Origin: an uncultured Planctomycetota bacterium
GTDB taxonomy: Bacteria; Planctomycetota; Planctomycetia; Gemmatales; Gemmataceae
Direction of reading: 5' to 3'
Assembly: GCA_963849325.1 (NCBI GenBank)
Contig: CAWKHF010000012.1
Location: 224,001-288,000 of the forward strand
Length of the DNA stretch: 64,000 nt
Made by a program: the position numbers and the translations under genes. Below are positions 14,749 to 33,731 of the stretch, piece after piece; within the stretch, counting starts at the first letter, position 1, and every line of letters starts with the position of its first letter. Below the pieces are notes generated by a model. The model did not search any database and was not told the DNA's origin. It saw only the letters and a program-made list of their open reading frames with translations.

Positions 14749-15141
14749 CTACAGGGGATTGGCAGAACAAAGGCGTTCTGTAATGTCTCGAAGCTGTGCC
14801 AAACACTCCGCTTCCGTTGAATAGCGACACTCACCTATCTTCGCTACAACATCTTGCCCTACTGCATGGATCCTTCTCACGTCGGCTTCGAGGAGAATGG
14901 CCGTTTCGGTCACGGTGATCTCCAAACACCAACTAACGGCTTCTCCGGAAACCAATTCTACGTCTACGTACTCCTCAAGCCGGTAACTGTCGATTAAGTC
15001 CGGCATTTCAACCACGTGCTTAACCGATCTTACTTCATTAAGCTCACTTAGGTGAATCGCATGGAGCTTGAGCCGGCGGTGGCATTCGCCAATCGCCAGA
15101 AGTAGCGGGAATCCGCGGACATTAATTGAAATCGTGTTCAT
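14749..15141 (-). CDS. Putative immunity protein for the ART-like tip
   Basis: Low-GC acidic ORF (MNTISINVRG) starting 4 nt after the toxin stop. Confidence 0.65.
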   Translation of the reverse strand: MNTISINVRGFPLLLAIGECHRRLKLHAIHLSELNEVRSVKHVVEMPDLIDSYRLEEYVDVELVSGEAVSWCLEITVTETAILLEADVRRIHAVGQDVVAKIGECRYSTEAECLAQLRDITERLCSANPL

Positions 15142-15145
15142 TGTG

Positions 15146-16639
15146 TTATTGAGGGAACTTTCCCGAAGCTCCAGGGCCATAGGGAGGAGTTGGCGGCTTA
15201 GGAATTACTGCGTTTTTGAGAGCGTCTGGCGTCACATTCACCACACTTACATGACCCGGTGGAGTCGTCAAGCTTCCAGGCACTCCATCTGGAATTACCG
15301 ATCCAGGTGGTAGTTTGGAGGTATCAATCGCCATGTAATCCTGGCCGGGACGAAGAACAGGCCGTTGACCACCGAGCGGACCCGGTGTACCCGGTTGAAT
15401 CGGGTTGCTCAATGAATCTCTGAAAGACAAGTGACCGCCGTCTTGAGGACGTGGTGTGAGATTAGACGGGCTGGGCCGCCCCTCTCGATAGATGATCGGT
15501 GGTGTCTCGCCCGTCGCTGGCGGTACTGGAGCGGCGGGTTGACGGCCGCGGAAGAAACTGCGGCCACCCTTAAGGACGACAGGCGCCGCTATCACTGCTG
15601 CCTGAAGAGCGGCATCTCCCAGCATCTGACGCTGCTGCGCTTGCGTCAAGCCCAGATGACGACCCGTCGCCAAGTCCTCTCCCGTCCAACCCGTGTACGC
15701 CGCGCTCACTCCCGTCGCGTCGGCCAAACCGCCCCCCAGCGATTGCAGCACCGACTGACCCTGATTGAAACCACGATCCGCCGCGCTGGACAACGCCGAC
15801 ACCGCCAGCATCCCCATGCCCACCGCGAACAGCACCGGACCAACGCCCGGAACCAACAAGGCCACCGCACCCAAACCTATGCCCGCACCAACCATCGCCA
15901 CCGTCTTCCAACTGGGGAAGTAATCGATGAACGTCTGCCAGCCGCTCTGCGGCGGCGGCGGATTGACCTGGGCGATGACCGGATCGTCCAGCGAACGCAG
16001 GGCATCGGTATCGCGCTGCTGCTGGGCGCTTTGCACGTTGGCGTTGACCTGCTTCTGCACCTGATTGAGCAGCGCCGCCCGCTGCGTGTCGGCCAGGCTA
16101 ATGCTCTGGGTCGTCTGGTCGGCGTTCTTGGCCTGGGCATCGCTGACGGAAGCGTTGACGGCGGCGACGATGGCGGCGGGTGCTGGCGCGACTTCGGCCT
16201 GCACTTGCCCAGCAGCGGCGTCGGCCGCCGCCTGGATGGCGGCATCGGCGGCCGACGCTTTCTGAACAACGCTGTCATGGCCGACGGTGGCCACTTGGGT
16301 ATCATGCGTTTGGGCGGCGCTGGCGTCCTTATCCTGTTGGTTCTTCTGGTCCTGGGCGATCTGATCGTTGCCGCTCTTGACGGCGGCGTCCTGGTTGTGG
16401 GCGGCCTGATCGTCGGAGGCGTCCTGGTTGTGGGCCGCCTGATCGTCGGCGGCGTCCACGGCTTTCTGATCGGCGGCGGTGGGGGCCTCGGTTTTCTCCC
16501 AGGCGTCGGCGGCGTCCTGGTCGGCGTTGGCGTCGGTGACGGCGGCAGTCGCTTCGTCGTTGTCGTGAGCGGCGGCATCGAGCGTGGCGGCGTGCTCGTC
16601 CGCTTGCCAGGTGATGTTTACGGCCGTTAAATACGTCAT
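15146..16639 (-). CDS. Orphan toxin module: truncated stalk + TM + PT-TG-like junction + putative ADP-ribosyltransferase-fold tip, no Hint
   Basis: ~15530-16628 duplicates the carrier 3' region. Unique tip IIYREG..SNLTPRP.D..LSF...IDTSKL...GHVSV. Confidence 0.7.
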   Translation of the reverse strand: MTYLTAVNITWQADEHAATLDAAAHDNDEATAAVTDANADQDAADAWEKTEAPTAADQKAVDAADDQAAHNQDASDDQAAHNQDAAVKSGNDQIAQDQKNQQDKDASAAQTHDTQVATVGHDSVVQKASAADAAIQAAADAAAGQVQAEVAPAPAAIVAAVNASVSDAQAKNADQTTQSISLADTQRAALLNQVQKQVNANVQSAQQQRDTDALRSLDDPVIAQVNPPPPQSGWQTFIDYFPSWKTVAMVGAGIGLGAVALLVPGVGPVLFAVGMGMLAVSALSSAADRGFNQGQSVLQSLGGGLADATGVSAAYTGWTGEDLATGRHLGLTQAQQRQMLGDAALQAAVIAAPVVLKGGRSFFRGRQPAAPVPPATGETPPIIYREGRPSPSNLTPRPQDGGHLSFRDSLSNPIQPGTPGPLGGQRPVLRPGQDYMAIDTSKLPPGSVIPDGVPGSLTTPPGHVSVVNVTPDALKNAVIPKPPTPPYGPGASGKFPQ

Positions 16640-16654
16640 CAGTGGCAGTCTACG

Positions 16655-17050
16655 CTATGATGCGCCCCAACCTGTTCCTTCGCAGATTTCACAGCGTACC
16701 TCATCATTCATACCCGTTCCAAAACAGACCGGACATTGGAACTTTAAGGACTGAAGCCCTCCTTCTATGCCCTGCCCCACAATAAAGACGGCTTTGTGTA
16801 GACACCCGTCTGCGTCGTAGAACTGAACTTCCACACGGCGGGGGTGTTCCACAATACTGACTACTTCAGAGACCTCAGATACCCTGTTGACAAAGTCAAC
16901 TGGGTCGAAGTCGCCTGCCAAAAACGGAGTTAACTTTTGCTTGAAATCCGACGGTTCGCCTCCTTCCGGCTTCGGCCAGATCGCAACAATCTTCCTTAGT
17001 CGCTCAATATAGTTACCAGTGTTTGGCTCCAAGTGGTCGTGCATGGTCAT
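16655..17050 (-). CDS. Putative immunity protein with C-terminal CxxCxGxG zinc-finger pair
   Basis: Low-GC ORF 2 nt after the toxin stop; CPVCFGTG...CEICEGTG. Confidence 0.65.
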   Translation of the reverse strand: MTMHDHLEPNTGNYIERLRKIVAIWPKPEGGEPSDFKQKLTPFLAGDFDPVDFVNRVSEVSEVVSIVEHPRRVEVQFYDADGCLHKAVFIVGQGIEGGLQSLKFQCPVCFGTGMNDEVRCEICEGTGWGAS

Positions 17051-17052
17051 GA

Positions 17053-19817
17053 TTATTTCAAGCTCCCTCCATACTGCTGCAACGCCGCCTCGATTCTTTC
17101 CAGTGCATCTGGCACCTGATCAAGGAACCGGAAACGCGGATCGTTCTTGAACAGGTTGGCTACGTCCTGGACATTACCTCGCGCTGAAGCGGCTTTAGCA
17201 GGCAGCGTCTTACTGAGGATTACATCGATGTTCTTATTCAGTTCAGCGATCTGGGTAGGTGTCAACTTGGCACCGGCAGGTAGAGCCTTGATTCCTTTGA
17301 TGACTTGTGGATCAGGCATCGCTCCCTTTGAACCAGAGGAGCCGGCCTGATGGCCATTGGTGTTATGACTCCAGACGGCGAAGCCCCAATCGTCACCACC
17401 CACGAAATACGTCTGCAACTCCCGCACGCGGAAATTATAGACACGCACCACCGCGCCGGCATCCACCATGTCCTCGACCATCACCGGCTCACCGCTCAGC
17501 GTCTGGATCATATCTCCACGACGCAACGACCACGCCAGCACCCAACCACGACCCGGCACGTAAAACGGATGCTCCCCCGTCGGACGCAACTCCCGACCAC
17601 CCACCGTCAGACGCACCACCGGCGCCAAGCGGACAAACACCTCCTCCACCACCTGCTCCACCACCGCAGCCGACGGATTGTACTGATCGCGGCTGAGGAC
17701 ACGGTCGCCGATCAGGATACGCTCAATCGCCTTGCAGCCGTACAGCAGACGAATCAGCGTCCCCGCCACGAAACAGGCCGTCTGCACCTGCGCCTGCTGA
17801 GCACTACCGGCCTTGCCAGCGTTGCTGCCCGCACTCGACTGCGGCGGCGTCGGCGGCTCGGTCGTCCCCTTCTGCGCCGCCGGCTGACGGCCACGCAGGA
17901 AGGAACGAGCACCGCGGACACCACCGTACAACAGCAATCCCGTCTGAATCGTGCCCTCCGTCAACATCTGACGTTGCTGCGCCGCCGTCAAGCCCAGATG
18001 ACGACCCGTCGCCAGGTCCTCTCCCGTCCAACCCGTGTACGCCGCACTGACCCCCGTGGCATCCGCCAAACCGCCCCCCAGCGATTGCAACACCGTCTGA
18101 CCCTGGTTGAAACCGCGATCCGCCGCGCTGGACAACGACGACACCGCCAGCATCCCCATGCCCACCGCGAACAGCACCGGACCAACGCCCGGAACCAACA
18201 AGGCCACCGCACCCAGACCCACGCCCACACCGACCATCGCCACCGTCTTCCAACTGGGGAAGAAATCGAGGAACGTCTGCCAGCCGCTCTGCGGCGGCGG
18301 CGGATTGACTTGCGCGATCACCAGGTCATCCAGCGAACGCGCCGCATCGATGTCGCGTCCCTGCTGGGCGCTTTGCACGTTGGCGTTGACCTGGTTCTGC
18401 ACTTGCGTGAGTAGCGCCGCCCGCTGTGTGTCGGCCACGTCGATGCTCTTGGCGGTTTGATCGGCGTTTTTGGCTTGGGCATCGCTGAGTGCGGCGTTGA
18501 CGGCGGCGACGAGGGCGGCGGGGGCCGGCGCGACTTCGGCCTGCACTTGCCCAGCAGCGGCGTCGGCCGCCGCCTGGATGGCGGCATCGGCTGCCGACGC
18601 TTTCTGGACGACGCTGTCGTGAGAGACGGTGGCTACCTGCGTATCGTGCGCTTGCGCGGCGTCGGCGTCCTTGTTCTGTTGGTTCTTCTGGTCCTGGGCG
18701 ATCTGATCGTTGCCGCTCTTGACGGCGGCGTCCTGGTTGTGGGCCGCCTGGTCGTCGGCGGCGTCCACGGCTTTCTGGTCGGCAGCGGCGGCGGGGGCCT
18801 CGGTCTTTTCCCAGGCGTCGGCGGCGCCCTGGTCGGCGTTCGCGTCGGTGACGGCGGCTGTCGCTTCATCGTTGTCGTGAGCGGCCGCATCAACGGTGGC
18901 CGCGTGCTCGTCTGCTTGCCAGGCCGTGTCCACCGCCGTCACGTCATCGGCGGCGGCCTGCGCTTCATCGTGGGCGTCGGCCACGGCGGCGTCGGCCTCG
19001 GTCTGGACGGCGACCTGAGCGTTGGCATCTTCGGCGTCGGACTCGGCGTCATCGGCCTTGGCCTCGGCCACCGTCTTGTCCGTCTCGGCGTTGTAGTCGG
19101 CCTCGGCATCAGCCACGTCCGCCGCGGCATCGCTGGCCGTGCCCTGGACCCAGGCGGCCATCTCCACGTCCAGCAAGTGCGCGTAGCGCGTGCCGGTCTG
19201 CTCGGCCCAGCTATGCACGTCGCTGCCGGCGGCCGACAACACGGCATCCACCTGCTGCTGCCACGCCGACATCTCGGCGTTGTTGCAGGCTTCGTTATCT
19301 TGCCGCGCCGCATCCAACGCGGCACTATCGGCAGCCGTGGTCTCTTGATCCCATTGTACGGCGGCGGCCGCATCGGCCAGTTGCTGCTGCTCCCAGGCCG
19401 CATCCACGGTGTCCGTCCAGGCCACGCCTGCCGCGGCATCCGCCTCGTCCTGGGCCACATCGGCGGCGCTGGCCGCGTCGTCCAGGGCCACGCCCGCCGC
19501 CGTCACTGCCGCGATGTACGGCGCATACGCCGCCGCGTTGGTCTGCTCCTCGGCGGAGGTCGCCGCCTCGTAGCTGTCCGTCCACGTCTGCTCGGCGTCG
19601 GCCAGGGCATCGTCGCATTGCTTCTGGGCGTCGGCGATGGCGTCGTCACGCACCTGCGCCGCCGCGTCCACGGTGTCGGCCAACGCCTGATCGGCAGTGG
19701 ACAGGGCGTCGGCCAGCGTCTTCTTGGCCGCCGTCATGCCCTGGTCATAGGTCCGCTCATTGTCGGCCTGAGCGTCGGCCAACGCCTGGTCAGCATCCGC
19801 GGCGGTGTCCAGGCACG
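17053..19817 (-). CDS. Orphan toxin module: truncated stalk + TM + Hint (17362-17775) + unknown ~100-aa helical tip
   Basis: Duplicate of the carrier from ~30340 onwards; Hint motifs CFVAGT, TGEHPFYV, VYNFRV, WSHN. Confidence 0.8.
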
Positions 19818-19830
19818 TAGGATTGGGCCG

Positions 19831-20325
19831 TCACACTTCAACTAGAATTGTCGAAAACCTCTCTTGCACTCCGCTTTCCGTGTTTGCGACGAATGTAAAT
19901 TTCGTCTCCCCAAGGGGTATACAGACTGGGGCGCCTGTCGCACGAAGATCAGATCCAGAAACCGGCTGGTATCTGACTTGATCGAAGGGATGCTCCTGGG
20001 TCGAGAAACCGACAAATACCTTATAACCATCGAGCTGTGGGGTGGTTTCCACAACCTCGATGAAACTCTTGCCATCATAAGACGGGTAGACTGTACCGTA
20101 TTCCGGTGTGGCGAGATCATCTTGATGTTCAGTAGAGAACAGAATCGACCGCAGAACCATGTTCTTGTAAAGGCTCTGGGCAATCTCATCCCAGTCGTCA
20201 TACGCTTCCTCATCCCGCCAAGGAATCCTCCCCCTTTCCATATAAGGAATCAAGGCCACAAGAGCGTCACGAAAATTTAGCATCAGATGGTGGACAGAAG
20301 TAGTCCACCGTTCTCCACCAGCCAT
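19831..20325 (-). CDS. Putative immunity protein
   Basis: Low-GC 164-aa ORF with TAATG overlap on the stop of the upstream toxin tip. Confidence 0.7.
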   Translation of the reverse strand: MAGGERWTTSVHHLMLNFRDALVALIPYMERGRIPWRDEEAYDDWDEIAQSLYKNMVLRSILFSTEHQDDLATPEYGTVYPSYDGKSFIEVVETTPQLDGYKVFVGFSTQEHPFDQVRYQPVSGSDLRATGAPVCIPLGETKFTFVANTESGVQERFSTILVEV

Positions 20326-20912
20326 TAGGAACCTCCGAATAGTTTGTCGATGAAGTCCAATTCTTCTGGTGTAGGAGGCCGCTTCGGCCCAAAACCCTGA
20401 CCGGGGGTAACCGGCTTCACTCGGTCCTTGGTGATGTCAAGGATGACCTGGCCTTTATCGTCCGTGACATAGACACGTCCCTTCGATCCTTTGATCAAAC
20501 TATTCGGGGGACCGGTAAGGTTCTTAACTTGTGAGCCGCTACGGCCACCGCTCAGGGCAGGCAGGTCTGGTCTCGGTGTCGCCCCACCCTGTGGAGCAGG
20601 CGAGCCAGCCTCGTGTCCATTAGTGTTATGGCTCCAGACGGCGAAGCCCCAATCGTCGCCACCCACGAAATACGTCTGCAACTCCCGCACGCGGAAATTA
20701 TAGACGCGCACCACCTCGCCGGTGTCCACCATGTCCTCGACCAGCACCGGCTCGCCGCTCAGCGTCTGAATCACGTCGCCACGACGCAACGACCACGCCA
20801 GCACCCAACCGCGACCCGGCACGTAGAAGGGATGTTCGCCCGTCGGACGCAATTCCCGACCACTCACCGTCAGACGCACCACCGGCGCCAAGCGAACAAA
20901 CACCTCCTCCAC
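20325..20912 (-). pseudogene. Orphan toxin module: 3' part of Hint + unknown ~99-aa basic tip
   Basis: 20620-20910 is nearly identical in DNA to 17357-17650. Tip SGGRSGSQVKNLTGPPNS...GRVYVTDDKGQVILDITKDRVKPV. Confidence 0.75.
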
Positions 20913-21027
20913 TACGGGAGAAAATGATCGAAAAACGTTTAAGGCCTTAATAATATCCTGATTAATTTTATACTTTTACGATGCTTTTTATAAATTTTTT
21001 CCCGTCCTTGATACTTTTCTGGTCATC

Positions 21028-21399
21028 TTATGTCCCAGCATTCTTCTCAGCACGAAATTGCAGCCACCTAGATGCATCAACTTCATCTGCTTCAATAAAA
21101 GGTTCTCGGGGTTCAAAATGATCGAACGGGGAGGATGGCTCGCTTCGGCAGCATGGAACATCGCCGTTCTTGTAGCCAGTAGGTTTCTTTGATTGTAGAA
21201 ACGTACATCCCTCGCTCACGCTTAGATTCCATTCAAATAGCGCGTTGACCCACCACCAGCAATATCGCCTCGGGCATCCAGCCGGAGGAATCTGCGCGGC
21301 CAGAGCTAGGTCACTTTTTGTTAACCCCCGTTCAGCAAGGGAAAGACGGTGTTCGCTCATCGCATTCTCTCCATCTCGATCAAGATTTGCATTATTCAT
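21028..21399 (-). CDS. Putative immunity protein (Cys/Trp-rich)
   Basis: Low-GC 123-aa ORF starting 10 nt after the stop of a toxin-tip remnant. Confidence 0.55.
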   Translation of the reverse strand: MNNANLDRDGENAMSEHRLSLAERGLTKSDLALAAQIPPAGCPRRYCWWWVNALFEWNLSVSEGCTFLQSKKPTGYKNGDVPCCRSEPSSPFDHFEPREPFIEADEVDASRWLQFRAEKNAGT

Positions 21400-21409
21400 C
21401 GTTCAACCC

Positions 21410-21544
21410 TCATGGCAGTAAAGTAGACCCAGGAAAGACAATCTTTCCCCCGATAACACTACCGTCAGGATCGATCCAATAATGCCACTCGACCTGCCGG
21501 CCGGATTCGTCCAGGAATACCTCGAAGACCTTTTGAGTTCCTGG
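21410..21544 (-). pseudogene. C-terminal remnant of a further toxin tip
   Basis: Manual translation PGTQKVFEVFLDESGRQVEWHYWIDPDGSVIGGKIVFPGSTLLP*; open from the MITE edge with no start codon. Confidence 0.55.
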
Positions 21545-21546
21545 CC

Positions 21547-21767
21547 GAATGGCGCTGACTTAAGAAGCAAGTGCTTCTTAAATAAAGACTTAGGACTTTG
21601 ACCTTTCGGTAGGAACAGGTAGAGAACATTTGTTTACTTCTACTCTGCGCCCGATGAATTACGCCGCCCACGGAAGTCGCTGATTGGTTGGCTAGCCGCC
21701 AGAAAGCCGCCCAGGACAACGTAAGGACTGAAAAGGCTTATGTTTGCGCCTTAAGTCAGCGCCATTC
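21547..21767. mobile_element. 221-bp MITE with IS4-type ends
   Basis: Perfect 18-bp IRs gaatggcgctgacttaag / cttaagtcagcgccattc, related to the IS4 IRs at 12762 and 14268; no transposase. Confidence 0.85.
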
Positions 21768-21824
21768 AGTCCCGACCCCCTTTCCGACCCCCTTTCTTCT
21801 CCCCTTTTCTTCTCCGCCTGCTGG

Positions 21825-22214
21825 TCAGTCCTCTTCCCAGGCGATGTTAGCAGGTAAATGCCGCGTCCTGAAGAAATATCTAACGGCTTCACGAGCGGTA
21901 TCAAATGGGATGGCGTGCTGAATGGGGAACTCAGACCATTGGTCCATGAAATGGAAGACAACGGTTCCTTCTCCCGTTAGATCGCCAACGCTGGATAGGT
22001 ACGGCGGTTCGCCTGAACCAGAGACATAATTGAGCACGCTCAAATCCCGGCCAACTCCGATCGCAAGCGATCCACCATTCTCAGGAGCTTCGACGGAGAC
22101 AAGTACAGCTCGGTCGCCCTGGTATTTGGCGTGCAAGTCATCCAACAACGCATCAAGCTCGGATAGCGAGGATATTTCTTTCTCGCCATCCTCTGACCAT
22201 TGCACTTTCCACAT
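21825..22214 (-). CDS. Imm1-family immunity protein (second copy)
   Basis: MWKVQW...LAIGVG...PPYLSS...FHFMDQWSEFP..HAIPFDTAREAVRYFF....P..IAWEE, an Imm1/DddI-like pattern. Confidence 0.75.
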   Translation of the reverse strand: MWKVQWSEDGEKEISSLSELDALLDDLHAKYQGDRAVLVSVEAPENGGSLAIGVGRDLSVLNYVSGSGEPPYLSSVGDLTGEGTVVFHFMDQWSEFPIQHAIPFDTAREAVRYFFRTRHLPANIAWEED

Positions 22215-22245
22215 GGTCACTATAAAGGCAGTCATGAGACAGTTT

Positions 22246-22650
22246 CTAAAACTCCTCCCAAGCAACGGCAGGACTGCGGCCACCCGTTTCCATGAAATAA
22301 GCGATGATTTGGTTTATTCGCTCAGGCGAAAGGCCGTATCGTCTATCGATCGGTGTGGCCGTACCCCCAACCACAAACTCCATGTCGCCGGCATGCGACT
22401 TCACTCCGGTCGGGCTAACTGCCATCCTATATGGAGGGGTTCCGTCGCTAGGGGCGTACTGAACACAACCAATATCAACCCCCAACCCCACTGTCAGAGT
22501 GATACCGTTATCGCCAATCAATTCACACATGAAGGGCGACCTAGAACAGCGCAACTCATTCAGCAAACCAACGATCTGTAGGGGGTTGGTAAAGCTCTCA
22601 TCGTTTCGCGGGTTGTCACGATCTTCCAAGTCCTGAAATGTTACTTTCAT
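22246..22650 (-). CDS. Imm1-family immunity protein, cognate to the deaminase tip
   Basis: MKVTF...LTVGLG...PPY...EFVVGGTATPI..RY.L.......YFMETGGRSPAVAWEE; ATGA overlap with the toxin stop. Confidence 0.8.
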   Translation of the reverse strand: MKVTFQDLEDRDNPRNDESFTNPLQIVGLLNELRCSRSPFMCELIGDNGITLTVGLGVDIGCVQYAPSDGTPPYRMAVSPTGVKSHAGDMEFVVGGTATPIDRRYGLSPERINQIIAYFMETGGRSPAVAWEEF

Positions 22651-25600
22651 CGAGCATTCCCAATAAACAATATGGAGGAGCCATCCGGCAACACGACCGT
22701 CAATCTGCTGCCCGGAGGCAACATGTTTGCGAGATTCTGTTGACAAGGCAGACAAATCTTCGGGTTGTTGATGTGCAGCACGGCCTCTTGAATTCCTTGC
22801 TGCCGCATCAACGCCGAAGCGTGTCCTTCTACATGCGTGGAGGTTATAGCGTTGAATCCGGGGGAAGGCTTTGGCAAGGAAGCCGCTGGTCCCGCCCGTC
22901 CACTCAGCAGGGGCGTATCACCCGCCGCCGTTCGCAGGACGCCAGACGTTTTGCCGCCCGCTACGAATTCGGGCAGCGTTACTCCTTCTCCGCAGTTGTT
23001 GTGGACGAGGACTTGCCCAGTTCCAACGGCATAGCAATGCAGACCCTCCACCTGGAAATTGTACACCTCCTGTCGAACTTGCCGCACCGCCAACCTCGTG
23101 ACCGGCGCTTGCCGACCCGACTTGAGCAGCAGCACGTCTCCCACCTGCAGGTCACCCGCATCCACCCAGCGGCCAGGAACCTTCGCTCCGGCCGGCGTCT
23201 CGGGGACGTGTTCGGGACGTGGCCGCGACTCCAGCCCTTGCCCCTCGATGACCCAGAAGGGGTGTCCGGCTGTCGCCTCGATGATTTCGCCCGCTACGAG
23301 GAGCGCTACCGAATCTCCCTCGTGATCGAACCGATAGGTCTCGACAACTGAGCGGAGCTTCCACTTCTTGGCAACGAGATCGTAGGCCCACACCCGATCT
23401 GACACCCGGATGGTCTCGATCGATTTGAGGCCCTCCGCAGCGGAAATCAAGGTGCCAGCAGGGAAGCAATTGGGGAAGCACCCTGCTTGTCGGGCAGCGG
23501 GAGCGGCCGCTTGGCGACCACGGAGGAAATTACGGCCGCCCTTGATGGCGCCTGGCAACAGCATGGCAGCGATTTGCACGCCGCTCTCTCCCAGCATCTG
23601 ACGTTGTTGCGCGTCGGTCAAGCCCAAATGGCGGCCCGTCGCCAGGTCCTCTCCCGTCCAACCCGTATACGCCGCGCTCACCCCCGTGGCGTCGGCCAGG
23701 CCGCCCCCCAGCGATTGCAGCACCGTCTGACCCTGGTTGAAACCGCGATCCGCCGCGCTGGACAACGACGACACCGCCAGCATTCCCATGCCCACCGCGA
23801 ACAGCACCGGACCAACGCCAGGAACCAACAAGGCCACCGCACCCAGACCTACGCCCACACCAACCATCGCCACCGTCTTCCAACTGGGGAAGAAATCGAT
23901 GAACGTCTGCCAGCCGCTCTGCGGCGGCGGCGGATTGACCTGGGCGATGACCAGATCATCCAGCGAACGCGCCGCATCGGTATCGCGCTGCTGCTGGGCG
24001 CTTTGCACGTTGGTGTTGACCTGGTTCTGCACTTGATTGAGCAGGGCCGCCCGCTGCGTGTCGGCCAGGCTGATGCCCTGGGTCGTCTGATCGGCGTTCT
24101 TGGCCTGGGCATCGCTGACGGCGGCGTTGACGGTGGCGATGATGGCGACGGGTGCCGGCGCGACTTCGGCCTGCACTTGCCCAGCAGCGGCGTCGGCCGC
24201 CGCCTGGATGGCGGCATCGGCTGCCGACGCTTTCTGGACAACGCTGTCGTGAGAGACGGTGGCCACTTGGGTATCATGCGTCTGGGCGGCGTTGGCATCC
24301 TTGGTCTGCTGCGTCTTGCTGGGCTTGGGCGATCTGATCGTTGCCGCTCTTGACGGCGGCGTCCTGGTTGTGGGCCGCCTGGTCGTCGGCGGCGTCCACG
24401 GCTTTCTGGTCGGCAGCGGCGGCGGGGGCCTCGGTCTTTTCCCAGGCGTCGGCGGCGTCCTGATCGGCGTTGGCGTCGGTGACGGCGGCAGTGGCTTCAT
24501 CGTTGTCGTGAGCGGCCGCATCAACGGTGGCCGCGTGCTCATCCGCTTGCCAGGCGCTGTCCACCGCCGTCACGTCGTCGGCGGCGGCCTGCACTTCATC
24601 ATGGGCGTCGGCCACGGCGGCGTCGGCCTCGGTCTTGACGGCGACCTGAGCGTTGGCATCTTCGGCGTCGGACTCGGCGTCGTCGGCCTTGGCCTCGGCC
24701 ACCGTCTTGTCCGTCTCGGCGTTGTAGTCGGCCTCGGCATCAGCCACGTCCGCCGCGGCATCGCTGGCCGTGCCCTGGACCCAGGCGGCCATTTCCACGT
24801 CCAGCAGATGGGCGTAGCGTGTGCCGGTCTGCTCGGCCCAGCTATGCACGTCGCTGCCGGCGGCCGACAATACCGTGTCCACCTGGCTCTGCCACGCCGC
24901 CATCTCCGCGTTATCGCAGGCTTCGTTGTCCTGCCGGGCCGTGTCCAACGCCGTGCTGTCGGCCGTGGACGTATCCGCGTCCCACTGCTCGGCGGCGGCG
25001 GCATCCGCCAGTTGCTGCTGCTCCCAGGCGGCATCCACGGTATCGGTCCAGGCCACGCCGGAGGCGGCGTCGGCTTCGTCCTGGGTCACGTCGGCGGCGC
25101 TGACCGCATCATCCAGAGCCACGCCCGCCGCCGTCACCGCCGCGATGTACGGCGCGTAGGCCGCCGCGTTGGTCTGCTCCTCGGCGGAGGCCGCCGCCTC
25201 GTAGCTGTCCGTCCACGTCTGCTCGGCGTCGGCCAGGGCATCGTCGCATTGCTTCTGGGCGTCGGCGATGGTGTCGTCGCGCACCTGCGCCGCCGCGTCC
25301 ACGGTGTCGGCCAAATCCTGATCGGCGGCGGACAGGGCATCCGCCAGCGTCTGCTTGGCCGCGGTCATGCCGTCGTCATAGGTCAGTTCGTTATCAGCCT
25401 GTGTGTCGGCCAACGTCTGCCCGGCGTCGGCGGCACTGTCCAGGTACGCCTGCAGAGCTTGCGCCTTGGCCGTTTGCAGGTCGGCCAACGGCTGGGCCAG
25501 GGCCTTGGTGTAGCCGGCGTTGGCGTCGTTGACGGCGTTGTTATAGACTTGGCGGGCGTTGGCATAGGCATCGTACTTGGTCTTCTCGATGGCGTTGGTC

Positions 25601-27294
25601 GCGCTTTGCTGCACCATCTGAGCGGTGCCGTCGGCCGTGACCTGCGTAATGGAGGCATCGTCCCGGGCCAGCAGGTAGGTCTGCTGCGCCTGTCGCAACT
25701 CGTTGGTTACGGCCTGGGCGGCATTGGGATCGCCGCTCTTCTCGGCGTTGTTATAGTCGGTTTGATATTGGCCATTGACGAAGTTCCAGTAAGTGGCGGC
25801 GGCGGCCTGGACGGTCTTGTTGTAGGCCGCCAGGTCTTTATTGAGGGCGCTGACGTAGTTGGCCTGAGTCGATTGACGCGAGCTGGCGTACTGCTGGTCC
25901 ACCGGATTGGTGGTCTGGATGAACTGATTGGCGGCGGCCTGACGCGCTGCGGAGGCGGCCTGTTGAGCAGCTTGGTCGGCGGCATCGTAGGCGTTCTGGG
26001 CGGTGGTGAGGGCAGTGTCGCGGATGCCACTGGCATTCTGGATGGTGTTGTTGTAGTCGTTCTGGGCGTTGCTATTGGCCTGGTCGAAGTCGCTTTGCAG
26101 TTGGTTGGTCTGATCGTTGTAGGCGTTTTGGGCGTCGGAGATGGCGGTGTTGTAGTCGTCTTCGGCCTGGCCCTGGACGGTGTCGTAGGTGTCGTTGGCT
26201 TGTTGGGTGGCCTGGTCGCTGGCGGCCTGGGCGGTGGTGGCGGCATCGTCGTAGGCAGAGTCGGCGGCGTCCTCGGCGTTTTGTCGGTCTTGGGCCGACT
26301 GGTTGGTGGCGTCGCTGTAGGTCTGGTCGGCGGCGGCGATGGCTTGACCGTAAGCCGTTTGCGCAGCGGCGACGGTTTGGTCGTGGGTGGCTTGGTTGGC
26401 GGCGAGGGCGTTGTTGTAGTCCTGGTCAGCCTGGTCCTGAGCCGCCTGCTCGGTGGCCGCGTCGGTGGCGACGGTCTGGTTGTAGGTGGTATCGGCGGTG
26501 TCGTAGGCGTTTTGCAGGTTGGCCTGCACGGTGTTCATCTGGTCGTTGAGCGTGTTCTCCGCCTGCTGATTGGCGGCATCATCGGCGGTCTGGGCGTTCT
26601 GTGTGGCGGCCTGGACGTTGGGGTCTTGCGAGAAGTCGGGCACGGTGGTGGCGGCCTGGTCGTCGGGTCCGTTGGCGTAATCGGCCTCGGCGGCGTTGGC
26701 GGCCTGGTCGAAGGCGGCCTGGTTCTGATCGCCGCTGGTCTGGGCGGCGGCGTCGGCTTGCGTCTCGGTCGCCGTGGCGGCTGACTCGGCGTCGGCGTCG
26801 GTCTGGGCGAGCTGCTGCTGCGCTTGCTGGTCCGCTTGCTGATTGGCCTGGTCAGCGTTGTCGAGGACGTTCTGCAAGGTCTGTTGATCGGCGGCATCGC
26901 GGCTGGTGTTGGCGGCGTCGGCGGCGGTGCTGCTGTCGTCGAGGGCTTGTTGCAGGGTGCTGGTCTGGTCGCTCAGTTGTTGATCGTCGGTCTGGGTGCG
27001 ATTCTGGTAGGCGGTGTCGGCGGTGTTGGTGCTGGCCTCGTCGGTGGCGTCGGCGGCGGCCTTGACGGTGTTATAGGTATCGTTGGCCGTGTCCACGCTG
27101 GTGTTGTACTGCTGGTCGGAGGCGTCGGCGGCGGTGTTGTACTGAGCGACGGCGGCTTGGGTGTCGGTGGCGAGCTGAGTGGCGTCGTCCTGGGTGGCTT
27201 GGTTGTAGGCGTCGTCGGCGGCTTGCGTGGCGGCGTCGGCGGCGGTGTTGTCGTTGGCCAGCGTTTGCGTGAAGTTCTGGGCAGGCTGAGGCAT
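22647..27294 (-). CDS. Orphan toxin module: long stalk copy + TM + Hint (22998-23468) + SCP1.201/DddA-like deaminase (22647-22997); frameshift near 24320
   Basis: Duplicate of the carrier from ~32173. Hint CFPAGT...TAGHPFWV...VYNFQV...VHN; deaminase HVEGH...INNP.IC.PC...MLPPG..LTVV.P.G...F.GN. Confidence 0.88.
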
Positions 27295-27311
27295 TAGCGG
27301 GCTATGAGCAT

Positions 27312-27926
27312 CTACCATCCTGTAAGGAGCTGCCCTTCCAGGATTTCGTAACCTTCCGCAATCACCTCGATGTAGCTGTCATGCCCAAGAATCAAATAAT
27401 GCCTCCACTTCCGATATCTGTCCTGCGCCGCTCCCGTTTCATCGAGCCAAGGGGACAATTCAACCTCATAAATCGACGGATCAGGACAGATGCCCGATTG
27501 TTGCCAGGAGTCACGAGTTTGCTGCAAATGCTTGAGTATGTCCTCTCCAGGTGTCCAACTTCCGGTGACTTGCGACCAATCAAACAGGGATTCATCGATG
27601 ACTTCCTTATCCGAATGAGAAGGGCACATTCTCGACCATATACCACTCTTGAAAACGAACCGCAGAAGGCGATACGGCCCCTTCTGGCTGGAATTCGCCA
27701 GTTGGAAGGTACTTGGCGGTTGAACAACTAGAACGCCTGATGACGAAGATACCGATACATCCTCACAGTGGTAATATGCGACAAAATCCACATGGGTTTC
27801 ACCTTGCGAGGAACATTCGGTTGCCACGAGGCGAAGAAACGGCGTTGATGGTGATACCATCCAGGGCACCTGTATCGGCATCAGGATTGGTTTTTGCACT
27901 CTTGTACTTGGCATGGTGTTCCTCAT
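27312..27926 (-). CDS. Putative immunity protein for the primary toxin tip
   Basis: Low-GC 204-aa ORF with TAATG overlap on the carrier stop. Confidence 0.7.
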   Translation of the reverse strand: MRNTMPSTRVQKPILMPIQVPWMVSPSTPFLRLVATECSSQGETHVDFVAYYHCEDVSVSSSSGVLVVQPPSTFQLANSSQKGPYRLLRFVFKSGIWSRMCPSHSDKEVIDESLFDWSQVTGSWTPGEDILKHLQQTRDSWQQSGICPDPSIYEVELSPWLDETGAAQDRYRKWRHYLILGHDSYIEVIAEGYEILEGQLLTGW

Positions 27927-30900
27927 TAGGGAAGTTCAATCACTCGCAGCACAGTAAGGTCCGTCTGGCTTGGCGTCACCGGCACCCGCGGTCCTGGCAG
28001 CGGGGCATCCGGGATGATAGGCGGTTCTTTCAGTCGTGCAAGCAAACGCCGCGTCGAGTCGATAATTTTGATGTTTGTCGGCTTCATCCCTGCCTCGCTG
28101 AGTGCTGCCAGTGAACGAGTGTTGGCCGACACGAGGGCCCATCAGCCATCTTGAAAGCTTCAATTGGCAACTGATCCGGCGTCATTTTTCCCGCACGCAA
28201 GTCAGCAGCCACATCACTAATTAGTCTCCCAGCAAGTTCTGGCGGCCGGCCTTTCGTACCAAATGTTGGCCCAACACGTTTCTGCCCGAACAACGGCCCT
28301 GCCGCTGACTGGGAAGCAGGCGGCACCACTGGCGCCGGCGTGACCGGAGCCGGCTTTGGACCACCCGGTGCGGCAGGGGGCGGAGCGGGCGGCTTGGGCG
28401 CGGCAGGCTGGCGGCCGCGGAGGAAATTGCGCCCACCCTTGACAGCGACGGGCAAAAGCAGGGCCGCCACCTGCAGGCCCGTCTCTCCCAGCATCTGACG
28501 TTGCTGGGCGGGCGTCAAGCCCAGATGACGACCCGTCGCCAAGTCCTCTCCCGTCCAACCCGTGTACGCCCGCTCACCCCCGTCGCGTCGGCCAGGCCGC
28601 CCCCAAGCGATTGCAACACCGACTGACCCTGGTTGAAACCGCGATCCGCCGCGCTGGACAACGCCGACACCGCCAGCATCCCCATGCCAATGGCAAACAG
28701 CACCGGACCGGCGCCCGGAATCAACAACGCCACCGCACCCAGACCCACGCCCGCACCAACCATCGCCACCGTCTTCCAACTGGGGAAGAAATCGATGAAC
28801 GTCTGCCAGCCGCTCTGCGGCGGCGGCGGATTGACCTGGGCGATGACCAGATCATCCAGCGAACGCGCCGCATCGATGTCGCGGCCTTGTTGGGCACTTT
28901 GCACGTTGGCGTTGACCTGGTTCTGCACTTGATTGAGCAGGGCCGCCCGCTGCGTGTCGGCCAGGCTGATGCTCTGGGTCGTCTGGTCGGCGTTCTTGGC
29001 CTGGGCATCGCTGACGGCGGCGTTGACGGCGCCGATGATGGCGGCGGGTGCCGGCGCGACTTCGGCCTGCACTTGCCCAGCAGCGGCGTCGGCCGCCGCC
29101 TGGATGGCGGCATCGGCCGCCGACGCTTTCTGGACGACGCTGTCGTGAGAGACGGTGGCCACCTGGGTATCATGCGTCTGGGCGGCGCTGGTATCCTTGT
29201 CTTGCTGCCTTTTTGGTCCTGAGCGAGTTGGTCACTGCCGCTCTTGACGGCGGCGTCCTGGTCGTGGGCCGCTTGATCGTCAGCGGCGTCCACGGCTTTC
29301 TGATCGGACGCGGCAGCGGGGGCCTCGGTCTTCTCCCATGTGTTGGCGGCGTCCTGATCGGCGTTAGCGTCGGCGACAGCGGCAGCGGCTTCATCGTTAT
29401 CGTGAGCGGCGGCATCGAGCGTGGCCGCGTGCTCGTCCGCTTGCCAAGCCGTATCCACGGCCGTTACCTCATCGGCGGCCGCCTGCACCTCGTCATGCGT
29501 ATCGGCCACTGCGGCCTCTGCCTCCGTTTTGACGGCCGCTTGAGCGTTGCTGGCCTCGGCGTTGCTCTCGGCATCCTCGGCCTTGGCCTCGGCTACGGTC
29601 TTGTCTGTCTCGGCGTTGAAGTCGGCGTCCGTATCCGCGACGTCGGCCGCGGCGTCGGACTCGGTGCCCTGGACCCAGGCAGCCATTTCCACGTCCAGCA
29701 AGTGGGCGTAGCGAGTCCCCGATTGCTCGGCCCAATTATGCAGGGCATCGCTCTGGACAGACAACACCGCATCCACTTGCTGCTGCCATGCCGCCATCTC
29801 CGTATTATTGCAGTCCTCGACAGCCGTACGGGCCGCATCGAGAGCGACGCTGTCGGCCGTGGCCGTATCCGCGTCCCACTGCTCGGCGGCGGCCGCATCC
29901 GCGAGTTGCTGGGTCTCCCAGGCGGCATCCACCGCATCCGTCCAGGCCACGCCGGAGGCGGCGTCGGCTTCGTCCTGGGCCACGTCGGCGGCGGTGACGG
30001 AGTCGTCCAACGTCACACCCGCCGCCGTCACCGCCGCGATGTACGGCGCATACGCCGCCGCGTTGGTCTGCTCCTCGGCGGAGGCCGCCGCCTCGTAGCT
30101 GTCCGTCCACGTCTGCTCGGCGTCGGCCAGGGCATCGTCGCATTGCTTCTGGGCGTCGGCGATGGTGTCGTCGCGCACCTGCGCCGCCGCGTCCACGGTG
30201 TCGGCCAACGCCTGATCGGCAGCGGACAGGGCATCGGCCAGCGTCTGCTTGGCCGCGGTCATGCCGTCGTCATAGGTCAATTCGTTATCAGCCTGTGTGT
30301 CGGCCAACGTCTGCCCGGCGTCGGCGGCCGTGTCCAGGTACGCCTGCAGAGCTTGCGCCTTGGCCGTTTGCAGGTCGGCCAGCGGCTGGGCCAGCGCCTT
30401 GGTGTAGCCGGCGTTGGCGTCGTTGACGGCGTTGTTATAGGTTTGGCGAGCGTTGGCGTAGGCATCGTACTTGGTCTTCTCGATGGCGTTGGTCGCGGTC
30501 TGCTGCACCATCTGGGCGGCGCCGTCGGCGGTGACCTGCTTGATGTAGGCGTCGTCTCGGGCCAGCAGGTAGGTCTGCTGCGCCTGCCGCAGCTCCTTGG
30601 TCACGGCCAGACCGGCATTGGGATCGTTGCTCTGCTCGGCGTTGTTATAGTCGGTCTGATATTGGCCATCGGCGAAGTTCCAGTATGTGGCCGCGGCTGC
30701 CTTGACGGCCGTGTTGTAGTTCGCCAGGTCTTTGTTGAGGGCACTGACGTAATCGGCCTGGGTGGACTGACGGGCTTTGGCGTATTGCGCGTCCACCGGG
30801 TTGGTGGTCTGGATGAACTGCTGGGTGGCGGCTTGCCGCGCCGCCGAGGCGGCCTGCTGAGCGGCCTGGTCGGCGGCGTCGTAGATGCCCTGGGCCTTGG

Positions 30901-33731
30901 TGATAGCGGCGTCGCGGTCGTTGCCGGCGTCCTGGACAACGCTGTTGTAGTCGTTCTGGGCGTTGCTATTGGCCTGGTCGAAGGCGCTTTGCAGTTGGTT
31001 GGTCTGATCGTTGTAGGCGTTTTGGGCGTCGGAGATGGCGGTGTTGTAGTCGTCCTCGGCCTGGCCCTGGACGGTGTTGTAGGTGTCGTTGGCTTGTTGG
31101 GTGGCCTGGTCGCTGGTGGCCTGGGCGGCGGTGGCGGCATCGTCGTAGGCAGAGTCGGCGGCGTCCTCGGCGGTCTGCCGGTCTTGGGCCGACTGGTTGG
31201 TGGCATCGGTGTAGGTTTGGCCGGCGGCGGCGACGGCTTGATCGTAAGCCGTTTGCGCAGCGGCGACAGTTTGGTCGTGGCTGGTCTGGTTGGCGGCGAG
31301 GGCGTTGTTGTAATCCTGGTCGGCCTGGTCCTGAGCCGCCTGCTCGGTGGCCGCGTCGCTGGCGACGGTCTGGTTGTAGGTGTTATCGGCGGTGTCGTAG
31401 GCGTTTTGCAGGTTGGCCTGGACGGTGTTCATCTGGTCGTTGAGGGTGGCCTCGGCCTGCTGATTGGCGGCATCGTCGGCGGTCTGGGCGGACTGCGTGG
31501 CGGCCTGAACGTTGGGATCCTGGGAGAAGTCGGGCACGGTGGTGGCGGCTTGGTCGTCCGGGCCGTTGGCGTAGTCGGCCTCGGCGGCGTTGGCGGCCTG
31601 GTCGAAGGTGGCCTGGTTCTGATCGCCGCTGGTCTGGGCAGCGGCGTCGGCTTGCGTCTCGGTCGCCGTGGCGGCGGACTCGGCGTCGGCGTCGGTCTGG
31701 GCGAGTTGCTGCTGCGCTTGCTGGTCCGCTTGCTGCTCGGCTTGGTCGGCGTTGTCGAGGGCGTTCTGCAAGGTCTGCTGATCGGCGGCATCGCGGCTGG
31801 TGTTGGCGGCGTCGGCGGCGGTGCTGCTGTCGTCGAGGGCTTGCTGCAGGGTGCTGGTCTGGTCGCTCAGTTGTTGATCGTCGCTCTGGGTGCGATTCTG
31901 GTAGGCGGTGTCGGCGGCGTTGGTGCTGGCCTCGTCGGTGGCGTCGGCGTCGGCCTTGACGGTGTTATAGGTATCGTTGGCCGTGTCCACGCTGGTGTTG
32001 TACTGCTGGTCGGAGGAGTCGGCGGCGGTGTTGTACTGAGCGACGGCGGCTTGGGTGTCGGTGGCGAGCTGAGTGGCGTCGTCCTGGGTGGCTTGGTTGT
32101 AGGCGTCGTCGGCGGCTTGCGTGGCGGCGTCGGCGGCGGTGTTGTCGTTGGCCAGCGTTTGCGTGAAGTTCTGGTCGGCGGTTTGTCCGCTGGTCTGGTA
32201 GCCCTGATCGATGCTGCTTTCCTGTTGGCTAAGGTTGTCGTTGAGGGCGGAGATGGTCTGCTGCTCTTGCTGATCGTCGGCAGCGGCGTCGTTGGTGAGG
32301 GTTTGCTGATCGTTCTGGACTTCCTGGATCACGGTGGGATCACTGGAGAACGTCATCGACCTCGGTAGAGCCGTAGTCGGTGGGGTCGGACTGACCAGGG
32401 TCGGGCGGACCATACAGATCCAGCGTCTCCGTGCCATCGGATGAATCGGAGGAATCGGTGGCGTCTGCTGTGCCCGCCGTGGTGTTATCGGCGGCGCTGC
32501 TGTCCGCGGGCGTCGAGGAGGCGGGGTCGGTGCCATCGGTTGAATCGCTGGAGTCGGCGAGGGACATCGGCGCCATCGTGGATGTTCCCGCCGCGGCGGA
32601 GGATGCCGAGGTCTTGCCGGCCTTGGGGTCGGTGGTCGAAGTGGGGACGGCGGGCGGGTCGCCGATAGCTGCCGAGTGGGGCGTCGGCGGCGGCAGGAGA
32701 GCGGGGCTGGCGGTGGGAGGCAGCGTAGTGGTGTGCGCCGGCGTGCCTTGAGGCAGGCGAGGCAGGCTTGAGCCAGTAGGAGCCGGAGTGTTGGCCCCGC
32801 GCACATCGGCGATGACCTGCGTCAGTCCAGACAATGCCTGGCTACTTTTCGTGGGCGGAGGTGGCAGGGTGAAGGCGGGCAGGGCGTGGTTGGCCGCCGG
32901 GCTGGAGGGGGTCGGACTGGTCTGGCTCTGGGTCGGACTGGTATTGGCCTGGCTGCTGCTGTTGAGAGCAACCGTGGCCGGCGTCGAAGGTGCGGCGTTG
33001 GCGCCATTCTGGGCCAGCAGGGTGTTCCAGTTCGGATTGCTGCCTCCTCCTCCTCCACCGCCTCCGCCGCTACCGCCGCCGGCGTTGGGCGTGCTGCTGC
33101 CGCCGGGACCGCCACCGCCGCCGGTGTCATTGTTAGGGTTGGACGGCGGTGCCGATGGAGGCGGCGAAGAGGACCGTGTGGGAGGCGGCGTCAAGGCAAG
33201 GTCTGTATCATCCGTCAGCGTCGGAGCGAAGGAGAGCGGCTGGGTGCTGCTGCTGGTGTTGTCGGTCGATGGGTTCTCCTGCTCAGGCGTGGAGGTGGCG
33301 GATTGGTCAGCTGCCGCCGGCTGTTTCAGGAGCAGCCAGGTCCAATAGTCCGGCGCGGACGAGGTCGAGGCGAGGTCCACCCCGGCGTCGGCGTTTTCTT
33401 GCGGCGGTAGTGAGACCGCAACGATGTCGGCATCCGCGTTGACTTCCGCATTCGCCGTCGGCGTTGGCTGAGAGGTGGCCAGCATGGGCGGGGGCGGGGC
33501 CAAGTTCGCCAGGCTCGACAGGAGTAACGGTGTGATGGCTTCGCCGGGCAGATCGCGCGAGGACAACGGCTCCAGCATCGGCCGCGAGGACCGCCGAGAC
33601 GTGGGGATGGCAGCGCGCCGCAGTCGTGGGCGATGACAGGTTTGCCGCAGGGCTTGATACAAATGAGTCGTAGTCCGTCCAACGTGCCAGATGGCCAGAC
33701 GCATCCAGCGACAACGCTGTCTCGGAGGCAT
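27926..33731 (-). CDS. Full-length polymorphic toxin carrier (~1,900 aa); four apparent frameshifts near 32350, 29212, 28570 and 28138
   Basis: Joins ORFs 32340..33731, 28721..32806, 28515..29162, 28084..28779 and 27926..28132. The breaks at 29212 and 28570 read through in the orphan copies. Order: RPMLEPLSSRDLP, S/T/P/G linker, A/D/Q/T stalk, hydrophobic segment, TGEDLATG, ParB-like tip. Confidence 0.8.

Follow-up and report, generated by a model that had tools for sequence, protein, structure and literature searches.

The stretch of DNA analyzed here, called the window, is 64,000 nucleotides (nt) of contig CAWKHF010000012.1 (assembly GCA_963849325.1) from an uncultured Planctomycetota bacterium of the family Gemmataceae, and the element in question is a putative cytosine-deaminase domain at the C-terminal tip of a predicted polymorphic toxin, encoded together with an intein-like HINT domain in front of it and an immunity gene behind it. 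An original prediction, made from the letters of the window, had placed a compact SCP1.201/DddA-like deaminase tip of about 116 amino acids (aa) at 22647..22997, directly behind the HN that ends a HINT domain. Profile hidden Markov model (HMM) matches and a fold model both support a real domain at this place, on the minus strand; the plus-strand frame across the same bases contains many stops. The predicted position and size were likewise borne out, as the region matched by the PT-HINT profile ends in ...VHN and 22997..22650 comprise exactly 116 codons after it. The features of the tip and of the domain before it are as follows.

22998..23468, minus strand: pre-toxin HINT (bacterial intein-like), from ...GCFPNCFPAGT to ...LVHN
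22650..22997, minus strand: deaminase toxin tip of 116 aa, corresponding to residues 424-539 of P0001 (539 aa)
22833-22835, minus strand: predicted Zn ligand H478
22827-22829, minus strand: predicted catalytic residue E480
22752-22754, minus strand: predicted Zn ligand C505
22743-22745, minus strand: predicted Zn ligand C508
22647-22649, minus strand: stop codon (TGA) of the tip

The tip closes an open reading frame (ORF) at 22647..24542 on the minus strand, the C-terminal end of which reads ...LVHNNCGEGVTLPEFVAGGKTSGVL...THVEGHASALMRQQGIQEAVLHINNPKICLPCQQNLANMLPPGSRLTVVLPDGSSILFIGNAR before the stop; VYNFQVEGLHCYAVGTGQVLVHNNCGEGVTLPEFVAGGKTSGVLRTAAGDTPLLSGRAGPAASLPKPSPGFNAITSTHVEGHASALMRQQGIQEAVLHINNPKICLPCQQNLANMLPPGSRLTVVLPDGSSILFIGNAR, likewise followed by the stop, is the C-terminal end that carries the tip. 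The gene-caller version of this protein, P0001, is 539 aa long and begins at a GTG, whose position (24264-24266) was worked out arithmetically from the end of the ORF; residue numbers below refer to P0001. The tip ends in ...LFIGNAR and contains H478-V-E480 and C505-L-P-C508, an intact HxE...CxxC arrangement whose earlier identification as a Zn-deaminase motif was upheld by the profile match and the fold comparison described below. In an alignment of 59 rows (A2: the tip and 58 of 150 listed representatives, those shorter than about 265 aa, chosen for cleanness), the H, E, C, and C columns are kept in 58, 58, 59, and 59 rows. In the same alignment, the tip keeps 23 of 24 invariant or near-invariant columns of its subfamily, the sole exception being a change from A to S.

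Family membership was assessed with profiles, pairwise alignments, and structural comparison. PF14428 (DddA-like, formerly SCP1.201-like) matched the 118-aa tip alone at E 3.5e-17 (63.0 bits, cut-off 25) and scored 62.3 bits in the scan of the whole genome, and a phmmer search of PDB sequences recovered DddA chains at E 2.8e-8 to 6.4e-7; given these E-values, the match is far above chance. A profile of 59 relatives reached DddA at 1e-12 and the deaminase of the entries labeled TOD4/TOD6 at 1e-10, and NCBIfam returned no match for the tip. The resemblance to DddA that the original prediction had seen in HVEG, NNP, and L-P recurs in the phmmer alignment; its fourth element, F.GN, was not confirmed in this way, as the alignments end before it. 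Within the tip's own subfamily, the F-x-G near the end is well kept (F or Y in 58 of the 59 rows, G in 58).

The structural comparison with DddA that had been proposed as a check pointed the same way. An AlphaFold2 model of the tip built on A2 (predicted local distance difference test, pLDDT, 93.7; predicted template modeling score 0.87) has the strand and helix order of a C-terminal-hairpin deaminase, the fold whose absence the original prediction had named as counter-evidence. At E<=0.001, Foldseek gave 11 matches in the PDB, each to DddA or to a TOD dsDNA deaminase (TMq 0.57-0.72), and housekeeping cytidine deaminases reach a template modeling (TM) score of about 0.4. VIA-align superposed the model on DddA (6u08/8e5d/8e5e) with Z 14.5-14.7 and a root-mean-square deviation of 2.2 A over 103 aa (model 10-123 = DddA 1299-1417) and on TOD6 with Z 15.1, compared with Z 8.5 for DddB, about 8 for plant DYW domains, and about 5-6.7 for CDA-type housekeeping cytidine deaminases and APOBECs. 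The secondary-structure elements of the model (E33-38, 24 residues, H63-74; E78-83 followed by N84 and N85; the hairpin E105-109/E115-119) agree with the clade signature published in 2011 (PMC3239186) in three elements: its insert, an Asn that follows strand 3, and its hairpin. No Sdd structure was among the PDB matches of the model in Foldseek or VIA-align, and a literature search on TOD4/TOD6 found no relevant paper. On the strength of the profile matches and the predicted fold, the tip is a genuine toxin domain of the PF14428/SCP1.201/BaDTF1 family, a Zn-dependent cytosine deaminase by its predicted catalysis.

The subfamily of the tip is large and has been catalogued before. An exhaustive HMMER pass over 1.84 billion cluster representatives (50% identity) yielded 639 clusters at E<=1e-3, 294 at E<=1e-10, and 34 at E<=1e-30, and a word-indexed search found 37 proteins at E<=1e-3 among 805 candidates, 36 of them with PF14428 and with varied N-termini (HINT in 3, RHS names or domains in 3). 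The best relative is a metagenome protein (P0002, 83% identical). With one genome taken per species, a relative of the tip is encoded at 78 loci, the closest of which (73-78% identity) lie in Pirellulales/Planctomycetaceae metagenome-assembled genomes (MAGs) and further ones in Xanthobacteraceae, Sorangium, Chloroflexota, and actinomycetes. In a maximum-likelihood tree, which took in the 47 of 79 rows that matched at least 91 query residues, the tip falls in a clade of six rows (support 99/98) whose other members are four MAGs of Planctomycetota and a fifth labeled Betaproteobacteria. Among the kin of the source organism the family is patchy: a search of 40 relatives found PF14428 in 3, none of 10 congeneric genomes carried it, and the source genome itself holds one copy. 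Compact PF14428 proteins of this subfamily were already in UniProt, for instance one of 106 aa (A0A3D1KCU5 / A0A1G0ZLX7) that Table S1.2 of PMC11472066 gives among its "candidate Sdds" and that is absent from the tested final candidates there; a full-text literature search for these accessions found no paper. Another metagenome protein (P0026, 521 aa) bears PF14428 and the Imm1 family PF14430 in one ORF, owing either to a gene call that reads through or to a natural fusion of toxin and immunity protein.

Two predicted immunity genes of the Imm1 family lie downstream of the tip.

22246..22650, minus strand: Imm1-A, 134 aa, PF14430, predicted cognate immunity protein
21825..22235, minus strand: Imm1-B, 136 aa, PF14430, likely orphan immunity gene

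Both were identified by PF14430 (Imm1-A at E 1.3e-6, 29.6 bits, cut-off 22.4; Imm1-B at E 6.1e-19), and NCBIfam had no match for either. The TGA of the toxin overlaps the ATG of Imm1-A (cgATGAaa). Related loci were surveyed by taking as the downstream ORF the first one of at least 90 aa that starts between 40 nt before and 200 nt after the toxin stop; such an ORF was present at 69 of the 78 loci, being Imm1 (E<=1e-3) in 48 of the 69 and sharing the 4-nt stop/start overlap in 32. The AlphaFold2 model of Imm1-A (pLDDT 92.9) matched, at E<=0.001 in the PDB, only the DddI chains 6u08 B/D/F (TM 0.64-0.82 under either normalization) at 15-17% sequence identity; phmmer of Imm1-A against the PDB gave chance-level matches only, so that the link to DddI is by fold alone. 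Given the ATGA overlap and an Imm1 protein whose only fold match is DddI, the tip and Imm1-A form what appears, from sequence and model, to be a classic polymorphic toxin/immunity pair, in which the two proteins would bind each other. Immunity identities set against the tree indicate that the type of immunity gene follows the clade of the tip: Imm1-A shares 44-50% identity with the immunity genes that adjoin the five nearest tips (L002-L006), and Imm1-B, at 25% identity to Imm1-A, is closest (44%) to those beside the Sorangium-type tips L018, L019, and L013. Because of these identities we take Imm1-A to be the cognate gene and Imm1-B, the second of the two, to belong to another specificity class and likely to be an orphan. 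No toxin that matches Imm1-B was seen in the source genome.

The association of SCP1.201 domains with Imm1 and HINT is already in print (Iyer 2011, PMC3239186; Zhang 2012, PMC3482391). In the present locus, PT-HINT (PF07591) matched the 157 aa before the tip at E 1.2e-16 (61.6 bits, cut-off 27.7), Hint_2 matched the same region below its cut-off (E 1.9e-4), and NCBIfam added a weak match to the intein C-terminal region (TIGR01443, P0001 400-423, ending at N423; E 0.0058), from which it may be supposed that the HINT frees the tip by autoproteolysis. The front part of the 539-aa ORF consists of a Q/A-rich stretch, a long hydrophobic stretch, and a conserved block, ...AAYTGWTGEDLATGRHLGL...FLRGRQ, and, apart from noise, it matched no Pfam family at a threshold as loose as E<=5. 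Its hydrophobic stretch (P0001 129-172 = 23751-23882), the only place where the 19-aa Kyte-Doolittle mean rises as far as 2.12, likely forms two transmembrane helices. A PT-TG domain, which had been guessed from a TGWTGEDLATG stretch, was dropped after no Pfam match was obtained even at E<=5.

This front part is shared with other cassettes. The deaminase cassette is the second of four tandem paralogues in an array of toxin cassettes at 14749-33731 on the minus strand.

23469..24266, minus strand: front part of the 539-aa ORF, shared scaffold, from the GTG at 24264-24266
27318..22647, minus strand: copy 1, the deaminase cassette
24274..27318, minus strand: upstream scaffold ORF of copy 1, 1014 aa, Q/D/A/T/N-rich, low complexity
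24264..24300, minus strand: frame break in copy 1, +1 nt relative to the in-frame copy 3, from an alignment of three copies
~32356..28084, minus strand: copy 2, the most complete, its tip without HINT and without a family
19782..17053, minus strand: copy 3, 909 aa, a Q/D/A-rich part, hydrophobic stretch, HINT, and tip of no known family in one frame
16639..15146, minus strand: copy 4 (P0176), in frame
20325-20912, minus strand: orphan HINT-C and tip fragment

The scaffold comprises about 1000-1300 aa rich in Q/D/A/T/N, then the hydrophobic stretch, and then the block with AAYTGWTGEDLATGRHLGL and FLRGRQ. Its part just upstream of the HINT occurs at four places in the genome, all within the window, with an identity of 76-93% (the weakest match being a short fragment), and the four paralogous scaffolds, 83-93% identical, carry four unrelated tips, the variable C-termini of polymorphic toxin systems. 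By BLASTN, 27280..23491 of copy 1 corresponds to 32174..28386 of copy 2 at 90.2% over 3795 nt; this homology begins about 180 nt inside the gene of copy 2 and stops just before the HINT, and the scaffold of copy 1 is thus 5'-truncated relative to the upstream cassette. The orphan fragment is 90.6% identical to the HINT of copy 3 over 329 nt and then diverges. Guanine-cytosine (GC) content is 0.64-0.71 in the scaffolds, 0.575 in the deaminase tip, and 0.52 in both Imm1 genes, with an overall range of 0.47-0.58 for the tips and immunity genes of the array.

The scaffold matched no Pfam or NCBIfam family, no trafficking or secretion domain was recognized on any scaffold ORF, and the atlas matches of these ORFs all scored below 0.9. 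Among 8000 scored candidates of near length, the 3 relatives retrieved were all paralogues from the window itself, and a search among longer proteins returned none among 1193 candidates, both of which are weak evidence; the relatives found are the window's paralogues and the metagenome protein P0002. The array may be built on an undescribed delivery scaffold. The four other C-terminal tips gave no Pfam family even at E<=5 and are candidate new toxin domains, and the small ORFs that follow them may be their immunity genes.

28084-28500, minus strand: tip of copy 2, without HINT; adjoining small ORF 27312-27926
20325-20621, minus strand: tip of the orphan fragment; adjoining small ORF 19831-20325
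17053-17400, minus strand: tip of copy 3; adjoining small ORF 16655-17050
15146-15598, minus strand: tip of copy 4; adjoining small ORF 14749-15180

Two further observations concern the edges of the array. At 32340-33731 on the minus strand lies a 463-aa ORF (S/T/P/G/A-rich, with a poly-Gly run and no family) whose stop overlaps the likely start (MTFSS...) of copy 2; this ORF may be a gene of its own or, shifted in frame, the true N-terminus of the toxin. At the downstream end, two overlapping minus-strand ORFs at 12775-14215 match the halves of DDE_Tnp_1 (profile positions 1-107 and 118-200); this segment is an insertion sequence element with a broken transposase.

Whether the deaminase cassette is expressed in the source genome is uncertain, because copy 1 is 5'-truncated and is cut off from its scaffold by the +1 frameshift; with the lack of a recognized trafficking domain, these features make expression doubtful and count against the cassette as a working toxin. 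Copies 3 and 4 read straight through the junction (...SGNDQIAQDQKNQQ.KDA.AAQ.HDTQVATV.HD...), copy 1 has its extra nucleotide there, and copy 2 lacks one at the same junction (29160-29200) and has a further 1-nt gap at about 28680. With copies 1 and 2 broken where copies 3 and 4 are in frame, the ancestral form would have been one long polypeptide, and the breaks could represent two independent events, a deliberate split into two genes, or an assembly error. A GTG stands just downstream of the junction in copies 1 and 2, and copy 3 has GTA there.

The alternative that fares best concerns expression only and fits either substrate: the cassette may be a silent "orphan" reserve from which the deaminase is made only after recombination with the upstream full-length gene has given back a frame and an N-terminus. 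We regard this as a serious possibility, albeit the lesser one. The place of the cassette as second of four tandem paralogues, the limits of its homology to copy 2 (starting at 27280 = 32174 and ending just before the HINT), the extra nucleotide at a junction that copies 3 and 4 cross in frame, the separate orphan HINT-C and tip fragment, and the low GC of tips and immunity genes relative to the scaffold all suit it. However, the GTG lies only 7 nt past the stop of the upstream scaffold ORF (TGA, 24274-24276) and opens an intact 539-aa ORF that the gene caller accepted, the tip shows no decay at its conserved columns, the coupled immunity gene is intact, and the upstream "main" copy is itself frame-broken twice. 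Given that last point, and given that the breaks are located in repeats of 86-93% identity, consensus errors of the assembly may account for them.

The original prediction also held that the clade includes enzymes acting on double-stranded DNA (dsDNA) and on single-stranded DNA (ssDNA), which agrees with Huang et al. (bioRxiv 10.1101/2023.05.21.541555), and that the substrate cannot be read from the sequence. The latter stands insofar as the sequence gives no proof, yet the sequence does bear on the question through features of DddA that the tip lacks. In the DddA structure, Phe1375 intercalates into the duplex, Ala1341 and Met1379 complete a hydrophobic minor-groove patch, and Asn1378, Arg1403, Ser1331, Asn1339, Tyr1340, Lys1402, and Lys1420 contact the DNA; F1375A/R and M1379A/R are inactive, as are most A1341 substitutions (PMC10442228). 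Residues were mapped from DddA to the tip through gap-free stretches of the phmmer alignment against the PDB.

Phe1375 of DddA: Pro507 in the tip
Met1379 of DddA: Asn511 in the tip
Ala1341 of DddA: Ile474 in the tip
Asn1378 of DddA: Gln510 in the tip
Tyr1340 of DddA: Ala473 in the tip
Asn1339 of DddA (backbone contact): Asn472 in the tip, kept

The tip is accordingly without the aromatic wedge between the two Cys (C-L-P-C) and without a hydrophobic patch of the Met1379/Ala1341 type. Its last residue aligns with DddA 1417, leaving no counterpart of Lys1420 or of the C-terminal SPKK-related motifs. The subfamily resembles the tip in both respects: the wedge column holds S27 N11 P8 G8 W2 L1 in the 59 rows (aromatic in 2), and 53 of the 59 rows have no residue past the tip's last one, the longest tail being 16. 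The deaminase in TOD4, the other solved dsDNA enzyme matched, reads TCGYC and again has an aromatic wedge. Deletion of the SPKK motifs of DddA abolished dsDNA activity according to Mi et al. (PMC9935910), who found four of four homologues with the motif to be dsDNA-active and four of four without it to be weak or inactive. The NEB screen (bioRxiv 10.1101/2023.06.29.547047) describes a DddA-like enzyme without the motif that strongly prefers ssDNA, another enzyme whose activity shifts to ssDNA when its C-terminus is cut, and no dsDNA-only enzyme among those it reports. In the structure clustering of Huang et al., the Ddd subclade consists of DddA and ten proteins, and an ssDNA-CBE (cytosine base editor) reporter gave a signal for 22 of 24 randomly chosen other SCP1.201 proteins. 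Since the dsDNA determinants are absent and their loss is tied to loss of dsDNA activity, a preference for ssDNA is the better bet, and we consider it probable, by a modest degree, that the tip is Sdd-like and prefers ssDNA over intact duplex.

Several points weigh against this reading. In its C-x-x-C spacing, HVEG, and NNP, the tip is at least as DddA-like as it is Sdd-like; the tested actinobacterial Sdds, compared by eye, have HVE[MIV]K and C-x5-10-C loops (PMC11472066), and ActSdd, which has C-x-x-C and a short C-terminus, stands in the "near inactive, toxic" table of that source. The solved structures nearest to the model are all dsDNA enzymes, in a PDB copy that gave no Sdd structure. 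Many bacterial deaminases in the NEB screen work on ssDNA as well as dsDNA, and some on RNA (bioRxiv 10.1101/2023.06.29.547047). Finally, the residue two positions after the catalytic Glu is His in the tip (HVEGH) and H, Q, or N in 55, 3, and 1 of the 59 rows, as opposed to the Lys or Gln of the 2011 clade signature [HD]xEx[KQ], which was drawn from few sequences (PMC3239186); His is a polar residue, though neither Lys nor Gln.

The tip could instead be a true dsDNA deaminase like DddA that opens the duplex by another route. This would fit the nearest structures (Z 14.6 for DddA, 15.1 for TOD6), the shared C-x-x-C, HVEG, NNP, and N472 (=N1339), and the family profile, about 100 positions of which align with the TOD4 deaminase, the N-terminal LPE[FY]..G.T.GVL motif among them. 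We nonetheless judge it unlikely, as the tip has Pro in place of the intercalating Phe1375, Asn in place of Met1379, and no tail that could hold equivalents of K1420 or SPKK, and in DddA and its homologues the loss of each of these features removes dsDNA activity or reduces it strongly; moreover, the tip and DddA are only 27-31% identical, and the Ddd subclade is small. No better odds can be given to the proposal that the Planctomycete-centered subfamily with the signature GGKT..SG..GPA..THVEGHAAA..NNP.IC..C is a third functional type within PF14428, naturally minimal (a core of about 100 aa, 116 aa released), without the DddA wedge and tail or the long Cys-loop of the tested actinobacterial Sdds, carried on an undescribed scaffold, and differing from both in substrate or sequence-context behavior; if it were true, it might mean, for example, context-free ssDNA editing below mini-Sdd size or duplex attack by a different mechanism. 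A non-DNA substrate (RNA or a free nucleotide) or a catalytically dead domain is very improbable: the substrate is not readable from the fold, but the tip retains the catalytic H/E/C/C and almost every residue conserved in its subfamily, the characterized PF14428 members described in the cited papers all act on DNA, and the fold of the immunity protein is that of DddI, described as a DNA mimic (PMC10442228).

Comparison with known systems places the tip, by HMM and fold, as an ordinary new member of the DddA/SCP1.201 family from which three sequence features tied to the Ddd subclade (the dsDNA deaminases DddA, Ddd_Ss, and Ddd1/7/8/9) are missing. DddA of B. cenocepacia (PDB 6U08, 8E5D/8E5E) has the same Pfam family and fold, a common HVEG...NNP...C-x-x-C...LP...TVV.P.G pattern, the same position at the C-terminus of an interbacterial toxin, and an immunity protein of the fold of Imm1-A. 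It differs in its residues at the three sites where the tip has Pro, Asn, and Ile, in its SPKK tail, in riding on a type VI secretion system effector where the tip stands behind a HINT on a scaffold of no known family, and in the low identities between both the toxins and the immunity proteins. The Sdds (Sdd6, Sdd7, SflSdd, SviSdd, Air1Sdd) share the Pfam family and the lack of a DddA-type tail, and by eye Sdd6 resembles the tip's subfamily in S-x-x-x-GPA and HVE[AG]HAAA.M; the tested ones come from actinobacteria, have helical N-termini of a WXG/LXG-like type and in most cases HVE[MIV]K, and place 5-10 residues between their two Cys where the tip has 2 (by eye). Their inhibitors (Sddi) are 136-140-aa ORFs directly downstream that have been shown to inhibit Sdd enzymes (PMC13034033), and the 134-aa Imm1-A, directly downstream and with a DddI-like fold, fits this description, so that both systems have an inhibitor gene of about 134-140 aa with a DddI-like fold. 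The compact UniProt proteins share the signature GVLRT..G...SG...GFD..TRTHVEG.AAALM..GI.E..LYINNP.IC.SC...LP.ML and end right after F.G, as the tip does, and differ in being stand-alone short ORFs. The cassette as a whole resembles the polymorphic toxin systems (Rhs, CdiA, MafB; Zhang et al. 2012) in its conserved N-terminal scaffold, variable C-terminal tips, pre-toxin HINT, immunity gene immediately behind the tip, downstream cassettes that are truncated, and tips and immunity genes of lower GC; it differs in that no Rhs, FilH, PAAR, LXG, MafB, or other trafficking domain was found on the scaffold and in that the scaffold was found only in the source genome and P0002.

The family, fold, catalytic motif, immunity pairing, and array structure of the cassette are established by these comparisons, and upon them a mechanism may be proposed in which catalysis, substrate, HINT cleavage, export, and expression are supplied by inference. 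The toxin would be exported on its lineage-specific scaffold, and PT-HINT would cut after ...VHN to release a free 116-aa deaminase. In the rival cell, this enzyme would convert C to U in DNA, causing mutations and, by way of uracil excision and arrested replication, death, as shown for DddA (PMC7901873). The producer would be protected by the translationally coupled Imm1-A, which, having the DddI fold, presumably plugs the DNA-binding face of the toxin. In the source genome, the product may only be the 539-aa GTG-started protein, or the cassette may serve as a reserve for recombination.

If active, the tip would be a natural DNA cytosine deaminase of 116 aa that comes with its own inhibitor of 134 aa, a handy small base-editor part in comparison with engineered mini-Sdds of about 130-160 aa; Sddi-type inhibitors are already in use as off-switches. 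The advantage of small size is common to hundreds of catalogued relatives, and the biology of the family (toxin, release by HINT, Imm1 immunity) has been in print since 2011-2012, and therefore the tip adds a candidate rather than a concept. The less expected part of the finding is the arrangement of four tandem cassettes on a scaffold without a recognizable secretion domain. This scaffold is of somewhat more value than the tip as an editor candidate, and the setting that it provides may be a sign that Planctomycetota-like bacteria have a delivery route not yet described.

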